A DNA stretch of 64,000 nt. Source: a virus (taxonomy: Duplodnaviria > Heunggongvirae > Uroviricota > Caudoviricetes). This document shows, in pieces, positions 27,746 to 40,595 of this stretch; position 1 is the stretch's first letter, and every line of letters starts with the position of its first letter. The translations under genes were made by a program, and so were the position numbers. The notes beneath the pieces were generated by a model. That model was not told the DNA's origin. It searched no databases and saw only the letters and a list, made by a program, of their open reading frames with translations. The DNA lies in the IMG/VR virus record IMGVR_UViG_2531839524_000004; one strand, given 5' to 3'.

Positions 27746-27820
27746 GATGGTGTAGCTCAGCGGTAGAGCAGTTGGCTGTTAACCAACTGGTCGGTGGTTC
27801 GAATCCACCCACCATCGCCA
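27746..27820 (+). tRNA. tRNA-Asn (anticodon GTT)
   Basis: Acceptor stem GATGGTG/CACCATC, anticodon loop CTGTTAA, T-loop GGTTCGAATCC, 3' CCA encoded. Confidence 0.8.
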
Positions 27821-27825
27821 ATTTA

Positions 27826-27912
27826 GGGGAGTTAGTCCGTAGAGGTAGCGGTGTAGACTGTAAATCTACTGTCATGGCGACTCGGGTGGTTCGACTCCAT
27901 CACTCCCCACCA
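27826..27912 (+). tRNA. tRNA-Tyr (anticodon GTA), long variable arm
   Basis: Acceptor GGGGAGT/ACTCCCC, anticodon loop CTGTAAA, T-loop GGTTCGACTCC, encoded CCA; 87 nt. Confidence 0.7.
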
Positions 27913-27916
27913 AATT

Positions 27917-27992
27917 GCCGGTTTAGCTCAGTTGGTAGAGCGCCTGCCTTGTAAGCAGGATGTCAGCGGTTCGAGTCCGTTAACCGGCACCA
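27917..27992 (+). tRNA. tRNA-Thr (anticodon TGT)
   Basis: Acceptor GCCGGTT/AACCGGC, D-arm TAGCTCAGTTGGTAGAGC, anticodon loop CTTGTAA, T-loop GGTTCGAGTCC, encoded CCA. Confidence 0.8.
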
Positions 27993-28209
27993 ACACAACA
28001 GGAAAGAGCATTGAAACCCGCCGAGACTGCCCTGTTTTAAGCGTAAGTCCGTGCAAACGTCATACAGTGCTCTTTTCGTTGTGGTTGATGCGCAGACTGA
28101 TGCGCGGAAAGAAATGCCCCAGCGACACACGAGGCGAGTTCACACACTGCAATGCAGTCAGTAGCCGGGGTCGCTAAGCCGGAGATCAGTACCGGTAACC
28201 ACAACAATT

Positions 28210-28296
28210 GGAGAGTAGGGAGCATGGTGCTCAAGCGGTCTTGAAAACCGTCCCATTGTGCAAACGATGATGGTTCGATTCCATTACTCTCCGCCA
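28210..28296 (+). tRNA. tRNA-Ser (anticodon TGA), long variable arm (tentative)
   Basis: Acceptor GGAGAGT/ACTCTCC, anticodon loop CTTGAAA, T-loop GGTTCGATTCC, encoded CCA; D-arm is unusual. Confidence 0.55.
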
Positions 28297-28297
28297 G

Positions 28298-28376
28298 ACA
28301 CAGCGTTGAGCGGTTTGGCCTTTTAATCAACTCGATTAAGACTCCGCTAACATAAACCAGACCGCTCAACGCTGTG
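28298..28376 (+). ncRNA. Hairpin element C (16-bp perfect stem, 46-nt loop) abutting the 3' end of tRNA-Ser
   Basis: 'CACAGCGTTGAGCGGT' pairs with 'ACCGCTCAACGCTGTG'; loop contains 'TTTTAATCAACTC' and 'GACTCC'. Confidence 0.45.
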
Positions 28377-28450: not shown

Positions 28451-28473
28451 AAAGGGGCTTCGGCCCCTTTTTT
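28451..28473. terminator. Bidirectional rho-independent terminator
   Basis: 'AAAGGGGC-TTCG-GCCCCTTTTTT' with an A-tract on the other side; between the tRNA cluster and the convergent minus-strand gene. Confidence 0.65.
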
Positions 28474-28488
28474 GTTGAACAGTGCAAT

Positions 28489-29751
28489 TTACTTTGCATA
28501 GTCGCCCAATTTTAATATTTCGCGCTTATATTCATTAACCATGCTACTGGATTCAGTATAAATTCGATTTAAAAGATTATCGTTATCTTTATTTTCATTT
28601 ATCTTAATTAGTGCTAATTTATATTCATAGTCATCAAATGCCACAATTAAATGGTGGCCTGGGATTATATCTTCGTCACTCTTAAAGTATATATCTTCAA
28701 GTATGTAATCTAGTTGATTAGATTTTCTTTTCTCGATGTAATCTTCAGCCATAGCTATTACATCATTCCTGTCATTTAACCTGTTTTTTTCGGAAGGCAC
28801 ATCTTCGTAATGTTGCACGATTGAACAACCAATAAGGCGTGGGATGTAAACGTCAAAATGAGTAACTCTATCATTCGCGGTTTTAAGTAGTTCCTCAAAG
28901 TAGTTTCTTACATGTAAAGGCAACTTCTCAAAGTAATCATTAATTATAGGAGAACAAGGAGTTTTATAATTCATAAGAACCGACGGTACGAGCTTTGGGT
29001 GTCGAAACATCCAGTCCCTTTTAACGTCCGATGGAACATAATAACTTTTAATGATATTATCAAAATAATTTATCATTCGAGATTTGAATATTTTGTTGAA
29101 TCTAAGGTTTATGAATGTATCCAGATAAGGCATATTTGAATAAGCATCATCAAAAAATATTTCATCATTGAAAAAATCATATTTATTCAATAAACAACAC
29201 AGTTTTTCCGAATTAATATGTTCACAATAATCGATTTTTAATCCAAAGATAGCAATGATCAACTTCATCTGAGGTGGGATTTTAAAAATTAATTGTGACA
29301 CATACGCTCTTTTTTCCTTGAGACATTCCCCATCAATATAAAATGAACCATCCACATACTCAAATATATTAATAATATGCTTCACATACTGTATTACCTC
29401 ATGCTGTCTTACCAATGGATAATATAGTCTATGTAACTCATCGCTGTTTAAATTAATTTTGTGTTTATCGATAATTTGTTTTGCAAGAAGACATAACTCA
29501 TCATGTTGATTTAATAAGGAATCAAACCATTGTTTAAATGCACTCTTTCGCATTTCGAACAATGATTCAGTTGTTAATTGAAGGGCTGAAAAAGCTGCTT
29601 TTGCACTTTTTCTCGCTTCGTAGGCATTCCATGCTGTTGCTATAAAAGCAAATGCTGTAGCCAATGTTCCAACAGTTTGACCATTTAAAACAACCCAATC
29701 CCAAAAAATGACGGTGAGCAGTAGTATAATAATGAAAATTAAAAAAGGCAT
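28489..29751 (-). CDS. Membrane-anchored hypothetical protein encoded in an AT-rich island
   Basis: 420 aa; two N-terminal TM segments then a large soluble domain with no motif I recognise; locus is visibly much more AT-rich than surrounding phage genes. Confidence 0.6.
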   Translation of the reverse strand: MPFLIFIIILLLTVIFWDWVVLNGQTVGTLATAFAFIATAWNAYEARKSAKAAFSALQLTTESLFEMRKSAFKQWFDSLLNQHDELCLLAKQIIDKHKINLNSDELHRLYYPLVRQHEVIQYVKHIINIFEYVDGSFYIDGECLKEKRAYVSQLIFKIPPQMKLIIAIFGLKIDYCEHINSEKLCCLLNKYDFFNDEIFFDDAYSNMPYLDTFINLRFNKIFKSRMINYFDNIIKSYYVPSDVKRDWMFRHPKLVPSVLMNYKTPCSPIINDYFEKLPLHVRNYFEELLKTANDRVTHFDVYIPRLIGCSIVQHYEDVPSEKNRLNDRNDVIAMAEDYIEKRKSNQLDYILEDIYFKSDEDIIPGHHLIVAFDDYEYKLALIKINENKDNDNLLNRIYTESSSMVNEYKREILKLGDYAK

Positions 29752-29925
29752 GTATGTATTTCACTCTACTAACTATAAAATATTAGGCTAATGTTAACCA
29801 AACAATGCCTTAATTAATAGATTGATCGAGGCTTTAATAGCTTTATAATGCAGACTGTAAAGATAAGTATGCACATACCTATCTTCTTTGTAAGTAAAGT
29901 TGCATATCAATTCTATGAGGTAACA

Positions 29926-30171
29926 ATGACGATCACTATCTACGGACGAGATAACTGCTCATACTGCAAACGTGCGGTCGAGCTGGCGAAGCAACTAAAG
30001 GGACATGGCTACGGTGATTATGAGTACATCGACATCACCACTGCCGGTATCGACAAGGAAAAACTAAGTGAAATTGTTGGTAAACCGGTAGAGACTATCC
30101 CCCAAGTGCTGATCGATGGCCAACCGATTGGCGGATACACAGAACTGGCTGCATACGTCAGCACCCTCTGA
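29926..30171 (+). CDS. Glutaredoxin / NrdH-like redoxin
   Basis: 'MTITIYGRDNCSYCKRAVELA' carries the CxxC active-site motif at the expected position; about 80 aa from the internal ATG of the 29848 ORF. Confidence 0.7.
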   Translation: MTITIYGRDNCSYCKRAVELAKQLKGHGYGDYEYIDITTAGIDKEKLSEIVGKPVETIPQVLIDGQPIGGYTELAAYVSTL

Positions 30172-30176
30172 TTTTA

Positions 30177-30198
30177 ACGGCTCACAGGAGCCGTTTTT
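30177..30198 (+). terminator. Rho-independent terminator
   Basis: 'ACGGCTC-ACAG-GAGCCGT' followed by TTTTT, immediately after the redoxin gene. Confidence 0.6.
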
Positions 30199-30250
30199 AT
30201 TCCCACCAAACTCACTCCCGTTTCCCTTAAAATTCAAAAAACAACGTCAA

Positions 30251-30283
30251 AATGATTCCATACCTACTATGTATGGAATCATT
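30251..30283. other. Candidate site-specific recombination site: perfect 13-bp inverted repeats around a 7-bp spacer
   Basis: 'AATGATTCCATAC-CTACTAT-GTATGGAATCATT', about 100 bp upstream of the tyrosine recombinase gene. Confidence 0.45.
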
Positions 30284-30381
30284 ACTGAAAATGAGTTACT
30301 TTGACTCTTGATCCTATAAGAATCTATGCCTAATATACTGTTTACTTATACAGTGAATCGGCGTAACTCGGTGATTGTCAT

Positions 30382-31485
30382 ATGAAAAATAGCTTTGACA
30401 GAGCACGCGCTGCGGAGAACACCTCAAAAGAGGCGATTGAGTATCTCGAAAGAGCATCTCAAATGCAGGCCGTTATGATCTCGCAGGTTAGCAATGATAT
30501 GAGATTCTCGGACGCATTCATGTTATTTACTCGCTTATCTCTGCTGATAACAAGACGTCGGCCGGAGATCGCTGTTCATTGTATTTTGATACATGTTTTG
30601 CCGCACATTGCTGATGTAAAAGTAAGTGACATTAATAGGTTCATGGTGAACCAACTGGTCAACCCCCTAATACTGGATGGCAAAATTGTTATGGGCCGCC
30701 GCGTTTTCTCTCTGATGAAGCAGTTCCTTAGCTGGTGTGCCTTCCAGGGGATGATCGACGTGTCACCGTTAAACGATATGTCACTAAACAAAGTTGCCGG
30801 TGGCGCAAAGCCCACGCCTCGCGAGCGGAAGCTAACCGACGCAGAGGTATGGGTGTTCTGGAATATATGGGACTACTTCAATGTGTGCGCTGGTACAAAA
30901 TGGGCGGCCAGGCTATGTCTTGTATCCGCAAGACGACCTGACGAAGTACTGCGGGCTAAAAAAAGTGAGTTCAACCTCCAGCGTGGGGTTTGGAATCAAG
31001 GCAAGAGAAACAAATCAGCCCGTGAGCATTCTCTGCCTTTAAGCACATTAATGCGCACATGCATTGAAGAGTTATTCGAATATGGTAAAGGCAGCCAGTG
31101 GCTTGTGCCTTCGAATAAAAAAATCGGGAAAGATCTTCCGATGTCTAAAGTGGCAATAGCCCAGGCATTACGCCGTATCCTGGAACGACCAGAACTGATG
31201 GAGCTTGAGCCATTTACACCACGAGATTTGCGTCGTACTGCGCGTAGTTACTTCCCAGCATTAGGCATAAGCCAGGAGGTATCACGTAAAATCATGAACC
31301 ACAGTCTTGAGGGGATAGATCGGGTCTACGACCGGCACGATTATATGGACGAGATGCGAGACGCCTTAGAAAGTTTCTCGACGTACATCGCATCAATCGT
31401 AGAGCAACCGGATTTAGACGAAATTGACCACAAATTCAAGGGAGATCGTCTATCGACAGAGCTTATTCGTGTAAATTTTTCATAG
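30382..31485 (+). CDS. Tyrosine recombinase / integrase-family protein
   Basis: C-terminal 'TPRDLRRTARSYF...IMNHSLEGIDRVYDRHDY' resembles the HxxR...H...Y catalytic region of tyrosine recombinases, with Arg where the first His is usual; 'SARRPDEVL' is a box I-like Arg. Confidence 0.65.
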   Translation: MKNSFDRARAAENTSKEAIEYLERASQMQAVMISQVSNDMRFSDAFMLFTRLSLLITRRRPEIAVHCILIHVLPHIADVKVSDINRFMVNQLVNPLILDGKIVMGRRVFSLMKQFLSWCAFQGMIDVSPLNDMSLNKVAGGAKPTPRERKLTDAEVWVFWNIWDYFNVCAGTKWAARLCLVSARRPDEVLRAKKSEFNLQRGVWNQGKRNKSAREHSLPLSTLMRTCIEELFEYGKGSQWLVPSNKKIGKDLPMSKVAIAQALRRILERPELMELEPFTPRDLRRTARSYFPALGISQEVSRKIMNHSLEGIDRVYDRHDYMDEMRDALESFSTYIASIVEQPDLDEIDHKFKGDRLSTELIRVNFS

Positions 31486-35871: not shown

Positions 35872-36075
35872 GTGCGTAAAGGATGTTTCGGCTCTCTTAT
35901 CGCTGCTTCTGAAACTGGTAAGGCTTGTCTGGTATGTCCAGACAAGCCCGATTGTCACCAATCAGCAAAAGAAGTTGCGATTTCGATGTATGGGAAGTTC
36001 GTAGGCTTCCCCAATGACAAAATCAAAAAAACCAGAAAGGTAAAAACACATGAAGGCTCTAATGGTTCGAACTGA
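35872..36075 (+). CDS. Small Cys-rich protein (putative zinc ribbon)
   Basis: 'CFGS...CLVCPDKPDC'; 67 aa; overlaps the polymerase start. Confidence 0.35.
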   Translation: MRKGCFGSLIAASETGKACLVCPDKPDCHQSAKEVAISMYGKFVGFPNDKIKKTRKVKTHEGSNGSN

Positions 36076-39000
36076 CTTCTCTCTTGGGGAGTCGGCTCTA
36101 AAAGCAGAAAACGCGGGGAAGATTGCCAGAGAAGCTGGCTACACCGCTGTAATTTCGGCAGATAGCATGAATATTGCGAGTGTTATTCCACTACAACGTG
36201 CCGCTGGTGACGACATGGCGGTTATTTGTGGTGTGAAACTAAACATCGTTGATGATCCCACATACGAGCACCGGGCTAAACTTGCTAAAGAGTCTATGAG
36301 ATGTATGGAATCATTAGAGCGTGGGCGGAACTACTCGTTTACCGCTCTAATTAAAAATGAGCAAGGATATCGCGACATCTGCGAACTAATGACGGTGGCC
36401 AACACACGAGAACAATTCTACTTTGTACCGCGTCTCTCGCTCGATCAGCTGGTTTCTACATATGCCAAAGGCAACATCATCCTGCTTACTTCCGACATCG
36501 GTAGCGTGTTCCAACGCAACGATTTTGCAAAAATCATAAGCTCACTGATTACAGCGGGTGGAAAAGACAACTTCTATAGCGTGGTTTATCCGCACCCTAC
36601 CCCATTCTACGACCAGATTAACGTCCGAGCGATGAAAGTAGCTAGCGCACTGAAAATAGAGCCAGTGGCGTTCTATCCCGCTTATTACGAATCGATCGAC
36701 GATGCAGACATTAAAGACATTGCGCACATGGTTACGAACAACATCAAAATAGCCCAGCCGCATCGTCTGCGTATCCCCCACCAGCGAGATAACGCCGTCA
36801 ATGGTCGCCGCCATCTCCTTGAGGCGCTTAAAGCCTTCTCCGTTCGCATGGATGTGCCGGTAACAGCTGCAATGGCCTCAACAACGCAGGACACCATTAT
36901 CGAAGCCTGCACATGGCGCTGGCATGAATTGCCACCAGCACTTCCTAAGATGGCAGACGACGAACCTGCAACACTGATGAAACTTGCTGTTGCAGGGCTG
37001 CGTAAGCGTCTTACCACAAAAGAGTTTGGCTATATACCACCGGCTTCTGAGAACAGGGTTTATGTTGAACGACTTAAGTACGAAATGGACACGCTGACTC
37101 GCCTGGGATTCTGTGGTTACTTCCTGATGGTGCGCGATCTGATGAATCATAGTCGTGAAACTGGCATTCCCGTTGGGCCTGGTCGTGGTTCCTCTGCCGG
37201 TTCTCTGGTGGCGTGGTGCATAGGCATAACCAACGTCGACCCAATCCGTCACGGTCTTCTGTTTGAACGTTTCATCAACCCTGAGCGTCTCGACTTGCCG
37301 GATGCGGATTTGGACTTCAGCCAGGCACGTCGCCATGAGGTGATCGAGTATCTGAATGAACGCTACGGCGAAGATTACGTTGCAGGCATTCCGAACTTCA
37401 CCTACCTGGGCGCCGCCTCTGCACTACGTGACACTGCTCGTATTTATGGTGTGGAGTCCGCAGATATGGCGGTATCAAAAGAGCTGAAGAACGTCGAGGA
37501 TGATAGCCTTCCATTGGAGGAGCTGCGCGAACAACTGGCAAGTCTCGACAAATACGCGACAAAATACCCTGATGCATTCAATGCAGCCTGCAAGTTACAA
37601 AGCCTTATGCGTGGCTTTGGTAGGCATGCGGCTGGGATGATCGTAGCAGGTGTTCCTCTGACTGAACGTACACCGGTTGAACGTCGTGGTGACGCGCGTT
37701 GTATCGCATTTGACAAGCGTTACTGCGAGGCTATGGGCCTAATTAAGCTGGACGTACTTGGCCTAGCAACTCTCGATTTGCTCGATAGTGCAAAACGCTA
37801 TATCAAAGAGAACACGGGTGAAGATATCAACCTTGATGCCATTTCTCTTGAAGATCGCAAGGTGCTGGATGGTTTTGCTGCTGGGTACACTCAAGGTGTT
37901 TTCCAGCTTGAATCAGGCCCAATGCGCAAGCTGCTTAAGGACTTAGGTAGTGGCATTGAGCCAATGAGCTTTAAAACGGTCGTTGCTACGACTGCGCTCT
38001 TCCGACCGGGGCCAATTCAGTCAGGCATGTTGGATGACTATGTTTCTGTCGCCAAAGGTTTTATGACGCCAGAGTCACTACACCCCGTTCTTGATGAGCT
38101 TACCGCAGAAACCAACGGTGTGATTCTCTATCAGGAGCAGACGATGAACGCGACCCGATTGCTTGCCGGCTTCACAATGGCTGAAGCTGACGGCGTTCGT
38201 AAAGCGATCGGCAAAAAAGATATGGAAAAAATGAAGAGCATGGGCGAGAAGTTCATCGTTCAGGCTCAAGCTGGCTGGATAGACGTTGAGCTGGAAGATG
38301 GCACTACACAGCGCATTCACCGTGCGGAACATTTTAAATGCGAAGACGGAACTCTGAAAACTGTCGAAGAGGCACTTGAGCACGGCGCAAAACTACCTAT
38401 AAACGCAGTACGCGTGACAGCGTCACACCCAGGGCTATCAGAGATGAAAGCGAAGGAGATCTGGACCGCATTCGAAAAAAATGGTGCCTACCAGTTCAAC
38501 AAATCACACTCTGTTGCTTACTCCTTAATCAGTTATCAATCTATGTGGTTGAAAACTCATTATCCCGCAGAGTTTTTCGCTGCTGCTCTTACTATTCTTG
38601 GTGAAGATAAACACCAGGGGCTGGTTAAAGATGCGCTGACCTATGGCATTCGCGTATTGCCACCAGACGTTAATGTGTCATCTAACCGAATAGAGATCCG
38701 CACGCTTGAAGATGGCAGCCAGGTGCTGTTCGCGCCTTTCTCTGCTGTGAAGGGGTGTTCAGAGAATGGCTGCCAAGCCATCATGAGAGCGCGTGAAAAA
38801 GTTGGAGGTAAATTCGAGTCACTGGCGCAATTCGAAGAAGCTGTCGAGAAACGTGCCTGTAATAGTCGAGTACGCGAATCACTGCAAAAAGTAGGGGCGT
38901 TTGCATCCATTGAGCCTGGTAGTCTGCCAGCAACTGATCCAGAGCGTCTCCGCGACCAAGCAGAATTGATGGGAAACCTTGTCATAGACGCAGTTAAAGC

Positions 39001-39568
39001 CTCACGTCCGTTTGAAATGAACCCCAAACGATCGGCTGAAATTAACGTGCTCATGACACGGATGGCGGCTGAAATGGGTTTAGGTGATGAACTAATCCGC
39101 CCCAGCATTGGTATTAAGCCGAAAATCATGATCATTCTGGACAATGCGAACGGCAATGATGCTCGAACCGGTTACTTTATGGAGAACGGATACGACGATT
39201 TTAAGGCCAAGTTGCTGACGGCCGGAGATTTGCGTATGGGCGATCTCTATGTCACAGGCGTTTGCAAGAAGGTTAAAGACAAAGAAAAAGACTACACCAA
39301 AGACGAGATCGGCCAGTTCACCGACTTTATGCGTGAAGAGATCAATCTGGTGCGTCCGACCTATGTTCTGACGTGTGGTAGTCGGGCGACGTCGCTCTTC
39401 AACAACAAGAGCAAACCATCCGACCTGGTTGGACGCAAAGAGTATCTGCCAGAGCTGGATGTGACCGTTTTCTACGGCTTTAACCCGAATATTTTGTACT
39501 TTCGTCCAGAGGAAGGCGAGAAGCTGGAAGCAATTCTGGCAGAGGTAGCGGAGACTATTAGCAAATGA
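36050..39568 (+). CDS. dnaE: DNA polymerase III alpha-like replicative polymerase (DnaE family)
   Basis: 'GPGRGSSAGSLVAWCIGITNVDP...FERFINPER...DLPDADLDF' and 'FNKSHSVAYSLISYQSMWLKTHYPAEF' are hallmark DnaE motifs; N-terminal PHP-like region lacks the usual His residues. Confidence 0.85.
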   Translation: MKALMVRTDFSLGESALKAENAGKIAREAGYTAVISADSMNIASVIPLQRAAGDDMAVICGVKLNIVDDPTYEHRAKLAKESMRCMESLERGRNYSFTALIKNEQGYRDICELMTVANTREQFYFVPRLSLDQLVSTYAKGNIILLTSDIGSVFQRNDFAKIISSLITAGGKDNFYSVVYPHPTPFYDQINVRAMKVASALKIEPVAFYPAYYESIDDADIKDIAHMVTNNIKIAQPHRLRIPHQRDNAVNGRRHLLEALKAFSVRMDVPVTAAMASTTQDTIIEACTWRWHELPPALPKMADDEPATLMKLAVAGLRKRLTTKEFGYIPPASENRVYVERLKYEMDTLTRLGFCGYFLMVRDLMNHSRETGIPVGPGRGSSAGSLVAWCIGITNVDPIRHGLLFERFINPERLDLPDADLDFSQARRHEVIEYLNERYGEDYVAGIPNFTYLGAASALRDTARIYGVESADMAVSKELKNVEDDSLPLEELREQLASLDKYATKYPDAFNAACKLQSLMRGFGRHAAGMIVAGVPLTERTPVERRGDARCIAFDKRYCEAMGLIKLDVLGLATLDLLDSAKRYIKENTGEDINLDAISLEDRKVLDGFAAGYTQGVFQLESGPMRKLLKDLGSGIEPMSFKTVVATTALFRPGPIQSGMLDDYVSVAKGFMTPESLHPVLDELTAETNGVILYQEQTMNATRLLAGFTMAEADGVRKAIGKKDMEKMKSMGEKFIVQAQAGWIDVELEDGTTQRIHRAEHFKCEDGTLKTVEEALEHGAKLPINAVRVTASHPGLSEMKAKEIWTAFEKNGAYQFNKSHSVAYSLISYQSMWLKTHYPAEFFAAALTILGEDKHQGLVKDALTYGIRVLPPDVNVSSNRIEIRTLEDGSQVLFAPFSAVKGCSENGCQAIMRAREKVGGKFESLAQFEEAVEKRACNSRVRESLQKVGAFASIEPGSLPATDPERLRDQAELMGNLVIDAVKASRPFEMNPKRSAEINVLMTRMAAEMGLGDELIRPSIGIKPKIMIILDNANGNDARTGYFMENGYDDFKAKLLTAGDLRMGDLYVTGVCKKVKDKEKDYTKDEIGQFTDFMREEINLVRPTYVLTCGSRATSLFNNKSKPSDLVGRKEYLPELDVTVFYGFNPNILYFRPEEGEKLEAILAEVAETISK

Positions 39569-39746: not shown

Positions 39747-40595
39747 TCAATATTTAACAAATATTTCATTAAGCCTAGGGTTAACTTGGTCATATTTATC
39801 TATGTCGTCTTTTAAAACTGAATGACATTTGACACCAATTTCAAATGCTATCAATATCGAATTTATATATTGATTATAGCATTCAATCAAAGATTTAATA
39901 TCAGATGATAGTTGTATCAACCGTGGATTGACTCTAAGAGCACTAATAACCTTATCATACTTGTTAAGCAACCCATTCAATTCATTAGCAAAATTATATG
40001 GATAACCATTTTGGTATGTATTTTCATCATCAGCAGGACCTAAATAATCACCAATGCACTTAAGTTTATTCTTAATGAATACAGCATCTTCAGTGGCATC
40101 TATATCATTTTTCGTTAAGAAAAGTTCTATCCACTTGTTCTTGTCCGACTCTTTCAAAAGGTTATTTTCTTTATCAAAAGTAATACAATAGCTATCACTT
40201 TTTTTCTCGTTGGAAATACTAATCATTTCCGCCAACTCGTCTTTACCTAAATGTTTCCAAAATATTACAGGGAGACCGTTGTCGTTTAGAAAAACGCGAA
40301 CAATGACAATCGGATCATTAATACTTTGCCAATAAATTAAATTTTTAATAGGTACAGAAACTCTTAGTGAATCATCGATTTTTTTACTTGTTGTTTTAAC
40401 TTGAACTCCAATAAACATACCTGTTGAATGACAGTTGTCATCATAAATCTCAACCTGAGCATCCAACCCCATGTCAATATCAAGAATTCGGCAAGGCCAT
40501 ACAAATTTATTTGAAATCCAATATGCGAAATAAAACTCACCAGCATTTCCGTTAGCAACTCTTTCGATATATCTCATGCCCTGATCGTTTGCCAC
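39747..40595 (-). CDS. Hypothetical protein with possible PD-(D/E)xK nuclease-like N-terminal domain, in an AT-rich island
   Basis: 282 aa; N-terminal 'GNAGEFYFAYWIS...ILDIDMGLDAQVEIYDD...FIGVQVKTT' gives a G-x-D...Q-x-K pattern reminiscent of restriction-endonuclease-like folds (inference); strongly AT-rich. Confidence 0.5.
   Translation of the reverse strand: MANDQGMRYIERVANGNAGEFYFAYWISNKFVWPCRILDIDMGLDAQVEIYDDNCHSTGMFIGVQVKTTSKKIDDSLRVSVPIKNLIYWQSINDPIVIVRVFLNDNGLPVIFWKHLGKDELAEMISISNEKKSDSYCITFDKENNLLKESDKNKWIELFLTKNDIDATEDAVFIKNKLKCIGDYLGPADDENTYQNGYPYNFANELNGLLNKYDKVISALRVNPRLIQLSSDIKSLIECYNQYINSILIAFEIGVKCHSVLKDDIDKYDQVNPRLNEIFVKY

Follow-up and report, generated by a model that had tools for sequence, protein, structure and literature searches.

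Background

AbiC (Prf) of Lactococcus lactis, first described in 1992, is the founder of both the Pfam family PF16872 (putAbiC) and the AbiC model of PADLOC. Here we describe a possible relative of this abortive infection (Abi) protein in an Escherichia coli phage-plasmid of the SSU5/pHCM2 type. Its gene, an open reading frame (ORF) of 420 amino acids at 28489..29751 on the minus strand, lies in a 64,000-nucleotide stretch of viral DNA (IMG/VR record IMGVR_UViG_2531839524_000004), which is referred to below, at its full length, as the window. Based on homology and genomic context, we propose that this accessory gene probably acts on its own in defence against other phages, as a member of the AbiC/AbiP (putAbiC) group. 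Its place is an exchangeable cassette in a fixed hotspot of the phage-plasmid, between the terminator of a tRNA cluster and the glutaredoxin gene grxA. The earlier note on this DNA had described an acquired moron with a superinfection-exclusion, abortive-infection or other defence function, and both homology and context support that description.

A 2026 review of lactococcal Abi systems unites AbiC, with two transmembrane (TM) helices, and AbiP, with one, in a single structural 'AbiC/P' group (PMC13064643). AbiP is a membrane-anchored protein that binds RNA and single-stranded DNA and needs its TM segment; it is non-toxic without phage, is triggered by a phage major tail protein, and blocks phage DNA replication and the switch from early to late transcription (PMC13064643). 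In the case of AbiC, DNA replication is unaffected and the production of the major capsid protein is lowered (PMC13064643). PdpSau, an AbiP-like membrane protein of Staphylococcus aureus prophages, aborts Kayvirus infection through early membrane depolarisation and permeabilisation, which follow normal adsorption and DNA entry (PMC10127798). The HEPN domain known as Abi_C/AbiJ is unrelated to AbiC (PMC13590631). With respect to the host element, curing Klebsiella of an SSU5-like plasmid raised the plating of lytic phages 10-100 fold (PMC8969562).

Homology to the putAbiC superfamily

Direct searches with the window protein (RefSeq WP_001718056.1, labelled 'hypothetical protein') produced no match at E<=1 in Pfam, PADLOC or NCBIfam, and its sole match in PHROGs was PHROG 18168, a family of unknown function. 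No match to the protein was found by tblastn in 50,697 phage records, and no related locus among the species representatives of GTDB. An exhaustive phmmer search collected 42 cluster representatives, mostly 415-465 amino acids long, and linked the window protein to PF16872-positive proteins at E-values from 1e-16 to 1e-10. When 29 of these homologues were scanned singly, 17 matched PF16872 (best E-value 1.4e-11), four matched the PADLOC model for AbiC and two the model for AbiP. One homologue, a plasmid protein of Pantoea agglomerans named 'putative phage abortive infection protein' by PGAP, aligned with the window protein by BLASTP at an E-value of 6e-18 (residues 28-331) and scored 45.4 bits against PF16872, for which the gathering cut-off is 22 bits. 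The scores of distant homologues in general ranged from 32 to 45 bits, and other alleles from the same genomic slot as the window gene scored 22.1, 18.4 and 17.9 bits.

We divided the homologues into a near clade, which includes the window protein and is Pfam-negative or marginal, and a far clade that is PF16872-positive. The alignment of the two clades by hhalign covered 374 columns with a probability of 100% and an E-value of 5e-50. Together with the BLASTP match, this alignment places the window protein in the putAbiC superfamily, and very probably as a divergent full-length member of its AbiC/AbiP group. The remote homology thus leads to abortive infection proteins and not to a structural or housekeeping family.

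The far clade has an invariant polar signature (LLLEQHN, GH..SPYMR..H, YSS.RS.I.ND, N, YQ, FFEH). The near clade keeps the hydrophobic core (Y122, F193, F194, Y262 and several leucines) and, in part, Q82 and H83; the window protein itself retains Q82, H83, Y122, Y150, F193 and F194 of the canonical signature. The Pfam model fails because the near clade has largely lost this polar signature. The earlier note had recognised no motif in the product, which agrees with the empty direct searches of Pfam, PADLOC and NCBIfam but not with the PF16872 assignment reached through homologues; the absence of a recognisable motif is a limit of reading by eye.

Protein architecture and predicted structure

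The ORF is intact, with an ATG start and no internal stop. The gene and the parts of its product are as follows.

28489..29751, minus strand: coding sequence for a membrane-anchored protein, very probably a divergent member of the AbiC/AbiP group (putAbiC superfamily)
Codons 29686..29748, minus strand: TM helix 1 (TM1), residues 2-22, from hydropathy and the AlphaFold2 helix
Codons 29614..29673, minus strand: TM helix 2 (TM2), residues about 27-46, with a stripe of small residues (A/T/G); the best-conserved part of the family
Codons 29464..29613, minus strand: basic juxtamembrane 'stalk' helix, residues 47-96, isoelectric point (pI) 9.4, with the near-invariant motif YEARKSAKAA
Codons 29152..29403, minus strand: equivalent of the PF16872 putAbiC core, residues 117-200; Y122, F193 and F194 do not vary among 39 homologues
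Codons 28492..29151, minus strand: hypervariable C-terminal half, residues 201-420, made of helices and a small three-stranded sheet, with an acidic end

The two N-terminal TM helices described in the earlier note were recovered by hydropathy, TM1 being strongly hydrophobic (Kyte-Doolittle values up to 2.8) and TM2 moderately so (1.45), and the AlphaFold helices agree with them. Residues R47, K48 and K51 directly follow TM2, and by the positive-inside rule they would place the remaining large domain of about 370 residues in the cytoplasm. The soluble part is slightly acidic overall (pI 6.1).

Conservation is distributed very unevenly along the protein. Mean pairwise identity within the near clade is 63% in TM2, 61% in the stalk (residues 47-83) and 41% in the putAbiC core (117-200), and it drops to 19-20% past residue 200. 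The conserved stretch of the stalk carries the near-invariant motif ATAW.AYEAR.SAKAA. A stripe of small residues (A/T/S/G), spaced 3-4 positions apart, runs along TM2 and into the opening turns of the stalk. Helices that pack tightly against one another show this pattern, which makes it plausible that the protein oligomerises through TM2 and the stalk.

The AlphaFold model that we used was built from 39 homologues and has a mean pLDDT (predicted local distance difference test) of 84.8 and a pTM (predicted template modelling score) of 0.71; an earlier model from seven sequences was poor (pLDDT 61.6) and was set aside. The model predicts a first helix at residues 2-22, corresponding to TM1, and a second at residues 24-96, in which TM2 runs into the stalk as one continuous helix of 73 residues. 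The body is an all-helical domain of about 320 amino acids, and the small three-stranded sheet lies in the C-terminal region. Foldseek found no structural match in the PDB at E<=0.001, the search of the viral predicted structures in BFVD gave no meaningful structural match, and a profile search of PDB sequences yielded chance matches only (E>=0.13). Neither AbiC nor AbiP is represented in the PDB.

An exchangeable cassette in a fixed slot

The assignment of the window to a phage-plasmid, also made in the earlier note, is borne out by comparison with sequenced elements. The 4.5 kb around the gene are 98-99% identical to non-mobilizable E. coli plasmids of about 110 kb, and the window matches phage Cyrano of E. 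coli LF82 in pieces and Salmonella phage SSU5 more distantly. The features that define the slot and its borders are listed below.

27746..28296, plus strand: cluster of four tRNA genes (Asn, Tyr, Thr, Ser), backbone, left of the slot
28451..28473, no strand assigned: GC-rich hairpin, probably a terminator common to the tRNA cluster (plus strand) and the gene (minus strand); left boundary of the variable slot
28475..29914, no strand assigned: exchangeable cassette of 1,440 bp; BLAST homology to Gp49-carrying relatives ends at 28474 and restarts at 29915
29752..29914, no strand assigned: cassette-borne candidate divergent control region, the 163 bp upstream of the gene, from consensus matches only
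29926..30171, plus strand: grxA, glutaredoxin of 81 amino acids as in RefSeq relatives; backbone, right of the slot
30382-31485, plus strand: integrase, backbone

Homology to relatives ends just past the hairpin and restarts 11 bp before the start of grxA. The segment in between contains the gene, its 163-bp upstream region and a sigma-70-like promoter directed towards grxA. In LF82, p4_0.2 and an Escherichia albertii plasmid, the same slot is filled by a 376-bp segment that encodes a Gp49-family protein (PF13876) and overlaps grxA, and the contents in relatives without the gene are Gp49, phoH or AbiH. The last of these was found in Klebsiella pneumoniae p2_020143 (L013 3587-4459), where an AbiH-family gene directly follows the same terminator and is itself followed by phoH, gp49 and grxA, showing that the position accepts defence cargo.

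The gene was identified in 40 of 5,426 complete E. coli genomes, always on a plasmid and never on the chromosome, as against 251 genomes that have the adjacent backbone integrase. The occupancy of the slot by this cassette is therefore about 16% of related E. coli backbones, and the gene is far from being conserved in all relatives. Other contigs of E. coli phage-plasmids carry alleles with 54% (P0005) and 32% (P0007) identity in this slot, with flanks that are 91-99% identical to the window. The same slot and the same orientation against the backbone were also found for homologues in Klebsiella (pKP4823_2), E. coli (pRM13322), Enterobacter (p1_020038) and Salmonella (AnCo3). These proteins have 398-432 amino acids and are all annotated as hypothetical. 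Altogether, the divergent slot alleles of Escherichia, Klebsiella, Enterobacter and Salmonella phage-plasmids span 30-55% identity. A tblastn search of PLSDB detected a homologue in 138 plasmids, 119 of them non-mobilizable, which were assigned to Escherichia (71), Klebsiella (37), Enterobacter (18), Salmonella (6), Pantoea (3), Citrobacter (2) and 'uncultured' (1).

An allele with 86% identity occurs on several E. albertii plasmids that measure no more than 62-64 kb (NZ_CP034165.1; L025), compared with about 110 kb for typical SSU5-type elements. This difference suggests that they derive from phage-plasmids by reduction, perhaps with loss of function, and have retained this region. The NCBI entries for the gene include hundreds of 'partial' proteins of 198-235 amino acids (P0049, P0059, P0006, P0010); draft assemblies may break within the AT-rich gene, or these may be copies interrupted by insertion sequences (IS).

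A second variable slot lies between grxA and the integrase (30172-30381). It is empty in the window (compare L001 4855-5409, L002 4450-5478 and L021 470-1931). In LF82 it holds a gene for a 184-amino-acid unknown protein on the opposite strand, and a gene of the same 184-residue size adjoins the 54% allele in L004-L006. In other elements of E. coli, Klebsiella and Enterobacter, this slot contains a YafO-family toxin gene with a partner of 175-205 amino acids, accompanied in one Klebsiella plasmid by a colicin-E1-type immunity gene.

Composition, terminator and control region

The gene is transcribed from the minus strand, and all its neighbours (the DNA ligase operon, the four tRNA genes, grxA and the integrase gene) are on the plus strand. 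Its GC content is 31.4% compared with 45.6% for the window, making it the lowest of all 1263-bp segments in the 64 kb (z = -4.4). The earlier note had thus correctly read the opposite strand, the AT-richness and the position beside the tRNA cluster. The atypical composition extends to every allele examined, with a GC content of 31-38% against 43-48% in the backbones. AT-richness is therefore a stable property of the gene family and not a time-stamp of recent transfer; low GC is also a classically noted trait of lactococcal Abi genes. In comparisons with the E. albertii allele and the 54% allele, the ratio of nonsynonymous to synonymous substitution rates (dN/dS) comes to 0.32 and 0.22, respectively, indicating that the gene is maintained by purifying selection.

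On the plus strand, a terminator was called at 28451-28470, where a hairpin with an 8-bp stem is followed by a T-run. On the minus strand the same GGGGC/GCCCC hairpin forms, followed by UUUGAAUUUUG (z -3.0), and the strict terminator scan made no call there. The hairpin probably serves both directions, and the bidirectionality proposed in the earlier note is plausible: the hairpin can form on both strands, although only the plus strand was called. The description of the gene as terminator-flanked holds for the left side only, because on the right a divergent promoter region, not a terminator, occupies 29752-29925. In this region, a sigma-70-like promoter towards grxA with 10 of 12 consensus matches is located at 29822-29849, and a weak candidate promoter towards the gene (TTGGTT-18-TATAGT, a consensus match only) at 29801-29772. 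The cassette thus seems to give grxA its own promoter in the window; in relatives that carry Gp49, grxA appears to be read through from gp49.

Several further observations concern the borders of the slot. The longest ORF for grxA starts at 29848 (29848-30171, 107 amino acids), compared with the 81-residue protein of RefSeq relatives that starts at 29926; the 26 extra codons coincide with the promoter on the cassette and probably remain untranslated. The last tRNA gene (28209-28296) was identified as tRNA-Ser(tga) by ARAGORN, and its best Rfam match is tRNA-Sec at 44.8 bits, below the threshold of 47 bits, presumably due to a long variable arm. Four nucleotides past this gene, and upstream of the terminator hairpin, begins a 19-nucleotide inverted repeat (28300-28318 / 28357-28375) with 95% complementarity and a 38-nucleotide loop, which might serve in processing or in recombination. 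The terminator hairpin was also considered as an attC-like cassette delimiter, and this possibility was set aside for too little support; L004-L006 have one full copy of the terminator core and a 29-nucleotide partial match (BLAST against L017).

Family members outside the phage-plasmid slot

Beyond phage-plasmids, members of the family were found in accessory regions of mobile elements, near genes for RES, HEPN, methyltransferase, toxin-antitoxin and IS functions. A Kosakonia member belongs to an island with RES, HEPN-Toprim and integrase genes, another lies in an integrative element beside an N6-methyltransferase gene, a third in a locus with patatin and Rhs genes, and a fourth in a region rich in IS on an F-type plasmid of E. 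coli. The F-type copy (L017 7929-9580, GCA_000355275.2; also L018 and L019) is a 1.65-kb fragment that is 97.5% identical to pRM13322 (L022 3240-4892). Besides the allele (P0014), it spans the GGGGCCGAAGCCCC terminator and some 260 bp of adjoining flank on the tRNA-Ser side, and is surrounded by IS1, IS91, IS110 and toxin-antitoxin genes in the psiA/psiB/ssb region. The high identity and the joint presence of allele, terminator and flank indicate that this copy was captured from a phage-plasmid.

Comparison with described systems

The gene displays two traits of the AbiC/AbiP group, an N-terminal membrane anchor in the product and a stand-alone, low-GC organisation on a mobile element. Similar to lactococcal AbiC, it is a single gene whose product begins with two TM helices and continues as a helical domain outside the membrane. 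The homology to AbiC runs by way of intermediates that are PF16872-positive; it covers the putAbiC core and extends past it. The differences are also considerable: the window protein fails the PF16872 and PADLOC AbiC models, is without most of the canonical polar residues, has 420 amino acids compared with the 306 positions of the PADLOC AbiC profile, and belongs to a phage-plasmid of a Gram-negative host.

With AbiP (by its description) and PdpSau, the window protein shares the character of a membrane-anchored product of a single gene with a cytoplasmic domain, and two of its homologues match the PADLOC AbiP model. The gene for PdpSau is prophage-borne, like the window gene (PMC10127798). In contrast to the single TM helix and basic, OB-like nucleic-acid-binding domain of AbiP and PdpSau, the window protein has two TM helices and an overall slightly acidic soluble part, and its AlphaFold model has no OB fold.

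The gammaproteobacterial proteins named 'putative phage abortive infection protein' (WP_161569778.1 of Pantoea and P0052 of Kosakonia) have the same length and architecture and align with the window protein from end to end, and such PF16872-positive proteins are likewise encoded in accessory regions of mobile elements. Their identity to the window protein is 15-25%, and they keep the signature QHN...SPYMR...H...RS...ND...N...YQ...FFEH, which is largely lost in the phage-plasmid clade. The AbiH-family gene of p2_020143 is, like the window gene, a single-gene Abi candidate at the position after the terminator, but it represents an unrelated family and is co-oriented with the backbone.

Two other classes were considered and rejected. 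A type III toxin-antitoxin system (ToxIN/AbiQ-like) would have a tandem array of antitoxin RNA repeats beside the toxin gene, and the locus has no tandem array, no Rfam noncoding RNA and repeats at chance level only. The class of holins and small superinfection-exclusion proteins (<150-200 amino acids) does not accommodate a protein of 420 amino acids with about 370 soluble residues, and no phage family of known function was matched.

Proposed function of the gene

By analogy with AbiP, AbiC and PdpSau, the protein would reside in an inactive state in the lysogen's inner membrane. The cytoplasmic C-terminal half, which is hypervariable, would recognise a component of a superinfecting phage, upon which the conserved TM2/stalk module, probably oligomeric, would arrest the phage once its DNA has entered. 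How it would do so is speculative: the membrane may be depolarised or permeabilised, nucleic acid may be bound at the membrane, or both may occur. Nucleic-acid binding would keep the phage from switching to late gene expression and from producing capsids. No phage would emerge from the infected cell, and the clonal hosts of the phage-plasmid would survive.

Several points weigh against a defence function of this kind. To our knowledge, no mechanism has been established for AbiC itself. The window protein on its own fails the Pfam, PADLOC and NCBIfam models, and the PDB and BFVD searches found no fold relative of known function. Residues H116, S120, P121, R124, H128, R155, S156, N160, N169, Q185 and H196 of the canonical signature are replaced, and with the polar signature mostly gone the biochemical activity could differ or be lost. 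The promoter evidence for the gene is weak. AT-rich genes in E. coli may moreover be silenced by H-NS. Finally, membership in the family is no guarantee of activity: one AbiC-like protein from Lactococcus, 38% identical to AbiC, failed to protect against the phages tested (PMC11381338).

An alternative reading is that the gene is an inert or silenced passenger, an AT-rich hitch-hiker in which the activity of the family has been lost. The missing polar residues, the weak promoter match and the inactivity of the AbiC-like protein in Lactococcus (PMC11381338) fit such a passenger. We nevertheless regard it as unlikely given that the reading frames are intact, dN/dS stays at 0.22-0.32 across alleles, and the TM2/stalk motif is kept nearly invariant among alleles with only 30% identity; in addition, the family fills the slot in four genera, and one allele was captured on an F-type plasmid. 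The proposal that the protein is a superinfection-exclusion factor, blocking at the inner membrane the entry of DNA from incoming phages or related phage-plasmids, seems improbable to us as well. It is consistent with a membrane-anchored, prophage-type moron that is transcribed against the backbone and whose conserved part is the membrane and juxtamembrane module, but about 370 residues are predicted to be cytoplasmic, unlike in the typically small exclusion proteins, and no match to any exclusion family was found in Pfam or PHROGs. Furthermore, the protein is homologous to the AbiC/AbiP group, and in that group and in PdpSau the phage DNA enters the cell and is transcribed (PMC13064643, PMC10127798).

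We consider it very unlikely that the gene is an addiction, toxin or competition module, in which a membrane toxin would serve to stabilise the phage-plasmid or to kill competitors without sensing phage. The small-residue stripes of the TM helices and the YafO toxins and colicin-E1-type immunity gene in the neighbouring variable slot of relatives would suit a toxin. However, the cassette has a single ORF with no partner antitoxin, noncoding RNA or repeat array, 84% of the backbones do without the gene, and AbiP is reported to be non-toxic in the absence of phage (PMC13064643). A role in the lytic cycle of the phage-plasmid itself (lysis timing, holin-like) or in anti-defence is extremely unlikely, even though the product is a membrane protein encoded on a phage genome and anti-defence genes are reported from phage-plasmids (10.1101/2025.09.12.675607). 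The gene is absent from most near-identical backbones, including the inducible LF82 element (phage Cyrano), is located far from the structural and lysis genes, encodes a protein much larger than holins at 420 amino acids, and has no tblastn match in the 50,697 phage records.

We thus favour the reading of the gene as a single-gene defence determinant of the AbiC/AbiP group. A bolder extension of it, which we put forward as a tentative and rather doubtful possibility, is that SSU5-supergroup phage-plasmids use the tRNA-grxA slot as a dedicated, polymorphic locus of immunity, filled by an unrecognised AbiC-like clade. The near-invariant TM2/stalk would then be the membrane effector and the hypervariable C-terminal half an exchangeable phage sensor, and allele swapping would set resistance. 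Since the clade has shed the polar signature, the mechanism under this extension would be distinct from that of lactococcal AbiC and AbiP, for example triggered pore formation.

A second AT-rich gene in the window

Another AT-rich gene (about 36% GC) is located at 39747-40595 on the minus strand, directly after the gene for the alpha subunit of DNA polymerase III (36050-39568, plus strand). Its product of 282 amino acids matches Pfam DUF4365 (E-value 1e-13), and the N-terminal 130 residues match the PADLOC model for a restriction endonuclease (REase) domain associated with prokaryotic Argonaute (pAgo) at an E-value of 1.5e-13. This gene is another candidate defence moron.

Implications for phage-plasmid biology

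SSU5-type phage-plasmids are common in clinical Enterobacteriaceae. A DefenseFinder survey of phage-plasmids, in the part accessible, lists AbiH, PrrC, PD-T4-3, PD-T7-5, restriction-modification and other systems in SSU5-type elements, and AbiC goes unmentioned there among the defence systems of these elements (10.1101/2025.09.12.675607). This silence is consistent with a clade that is invisible to current models. Because the family escapes Pfam, PADLOC and NCBIfam and its members are annotated as hypothetical, defence surveys of SSU5-type phage-plasmids probably miss it.

As a category, a single-gene membrane Abi protein of the AbiC/AbiP type in a prophage hotspot is expected cargo and would not surprise a specialist. 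Of use, rather, are a defence-like family that annotation has missed and its strict tie to one slot across four genera, with extreme allelic divergence. Through such a homologous family in E. coli phage-plasmids, the mechanism of AbiC could be studied in the most tractable host, for which large standard phage collections exist. The natural alleles, with 30-55% identity, a fixed slot and conserved flanks, would form a ready set of sensor variants for mapping the phage components that are recognised. If the slot is indeed a polymorphic immune locus, recombination in the conserved flanks would swap alleles and thereby determine which phages are resisted by clinical lineages of Escherichia, Klebsiella, Enterobacter and Salmonella.

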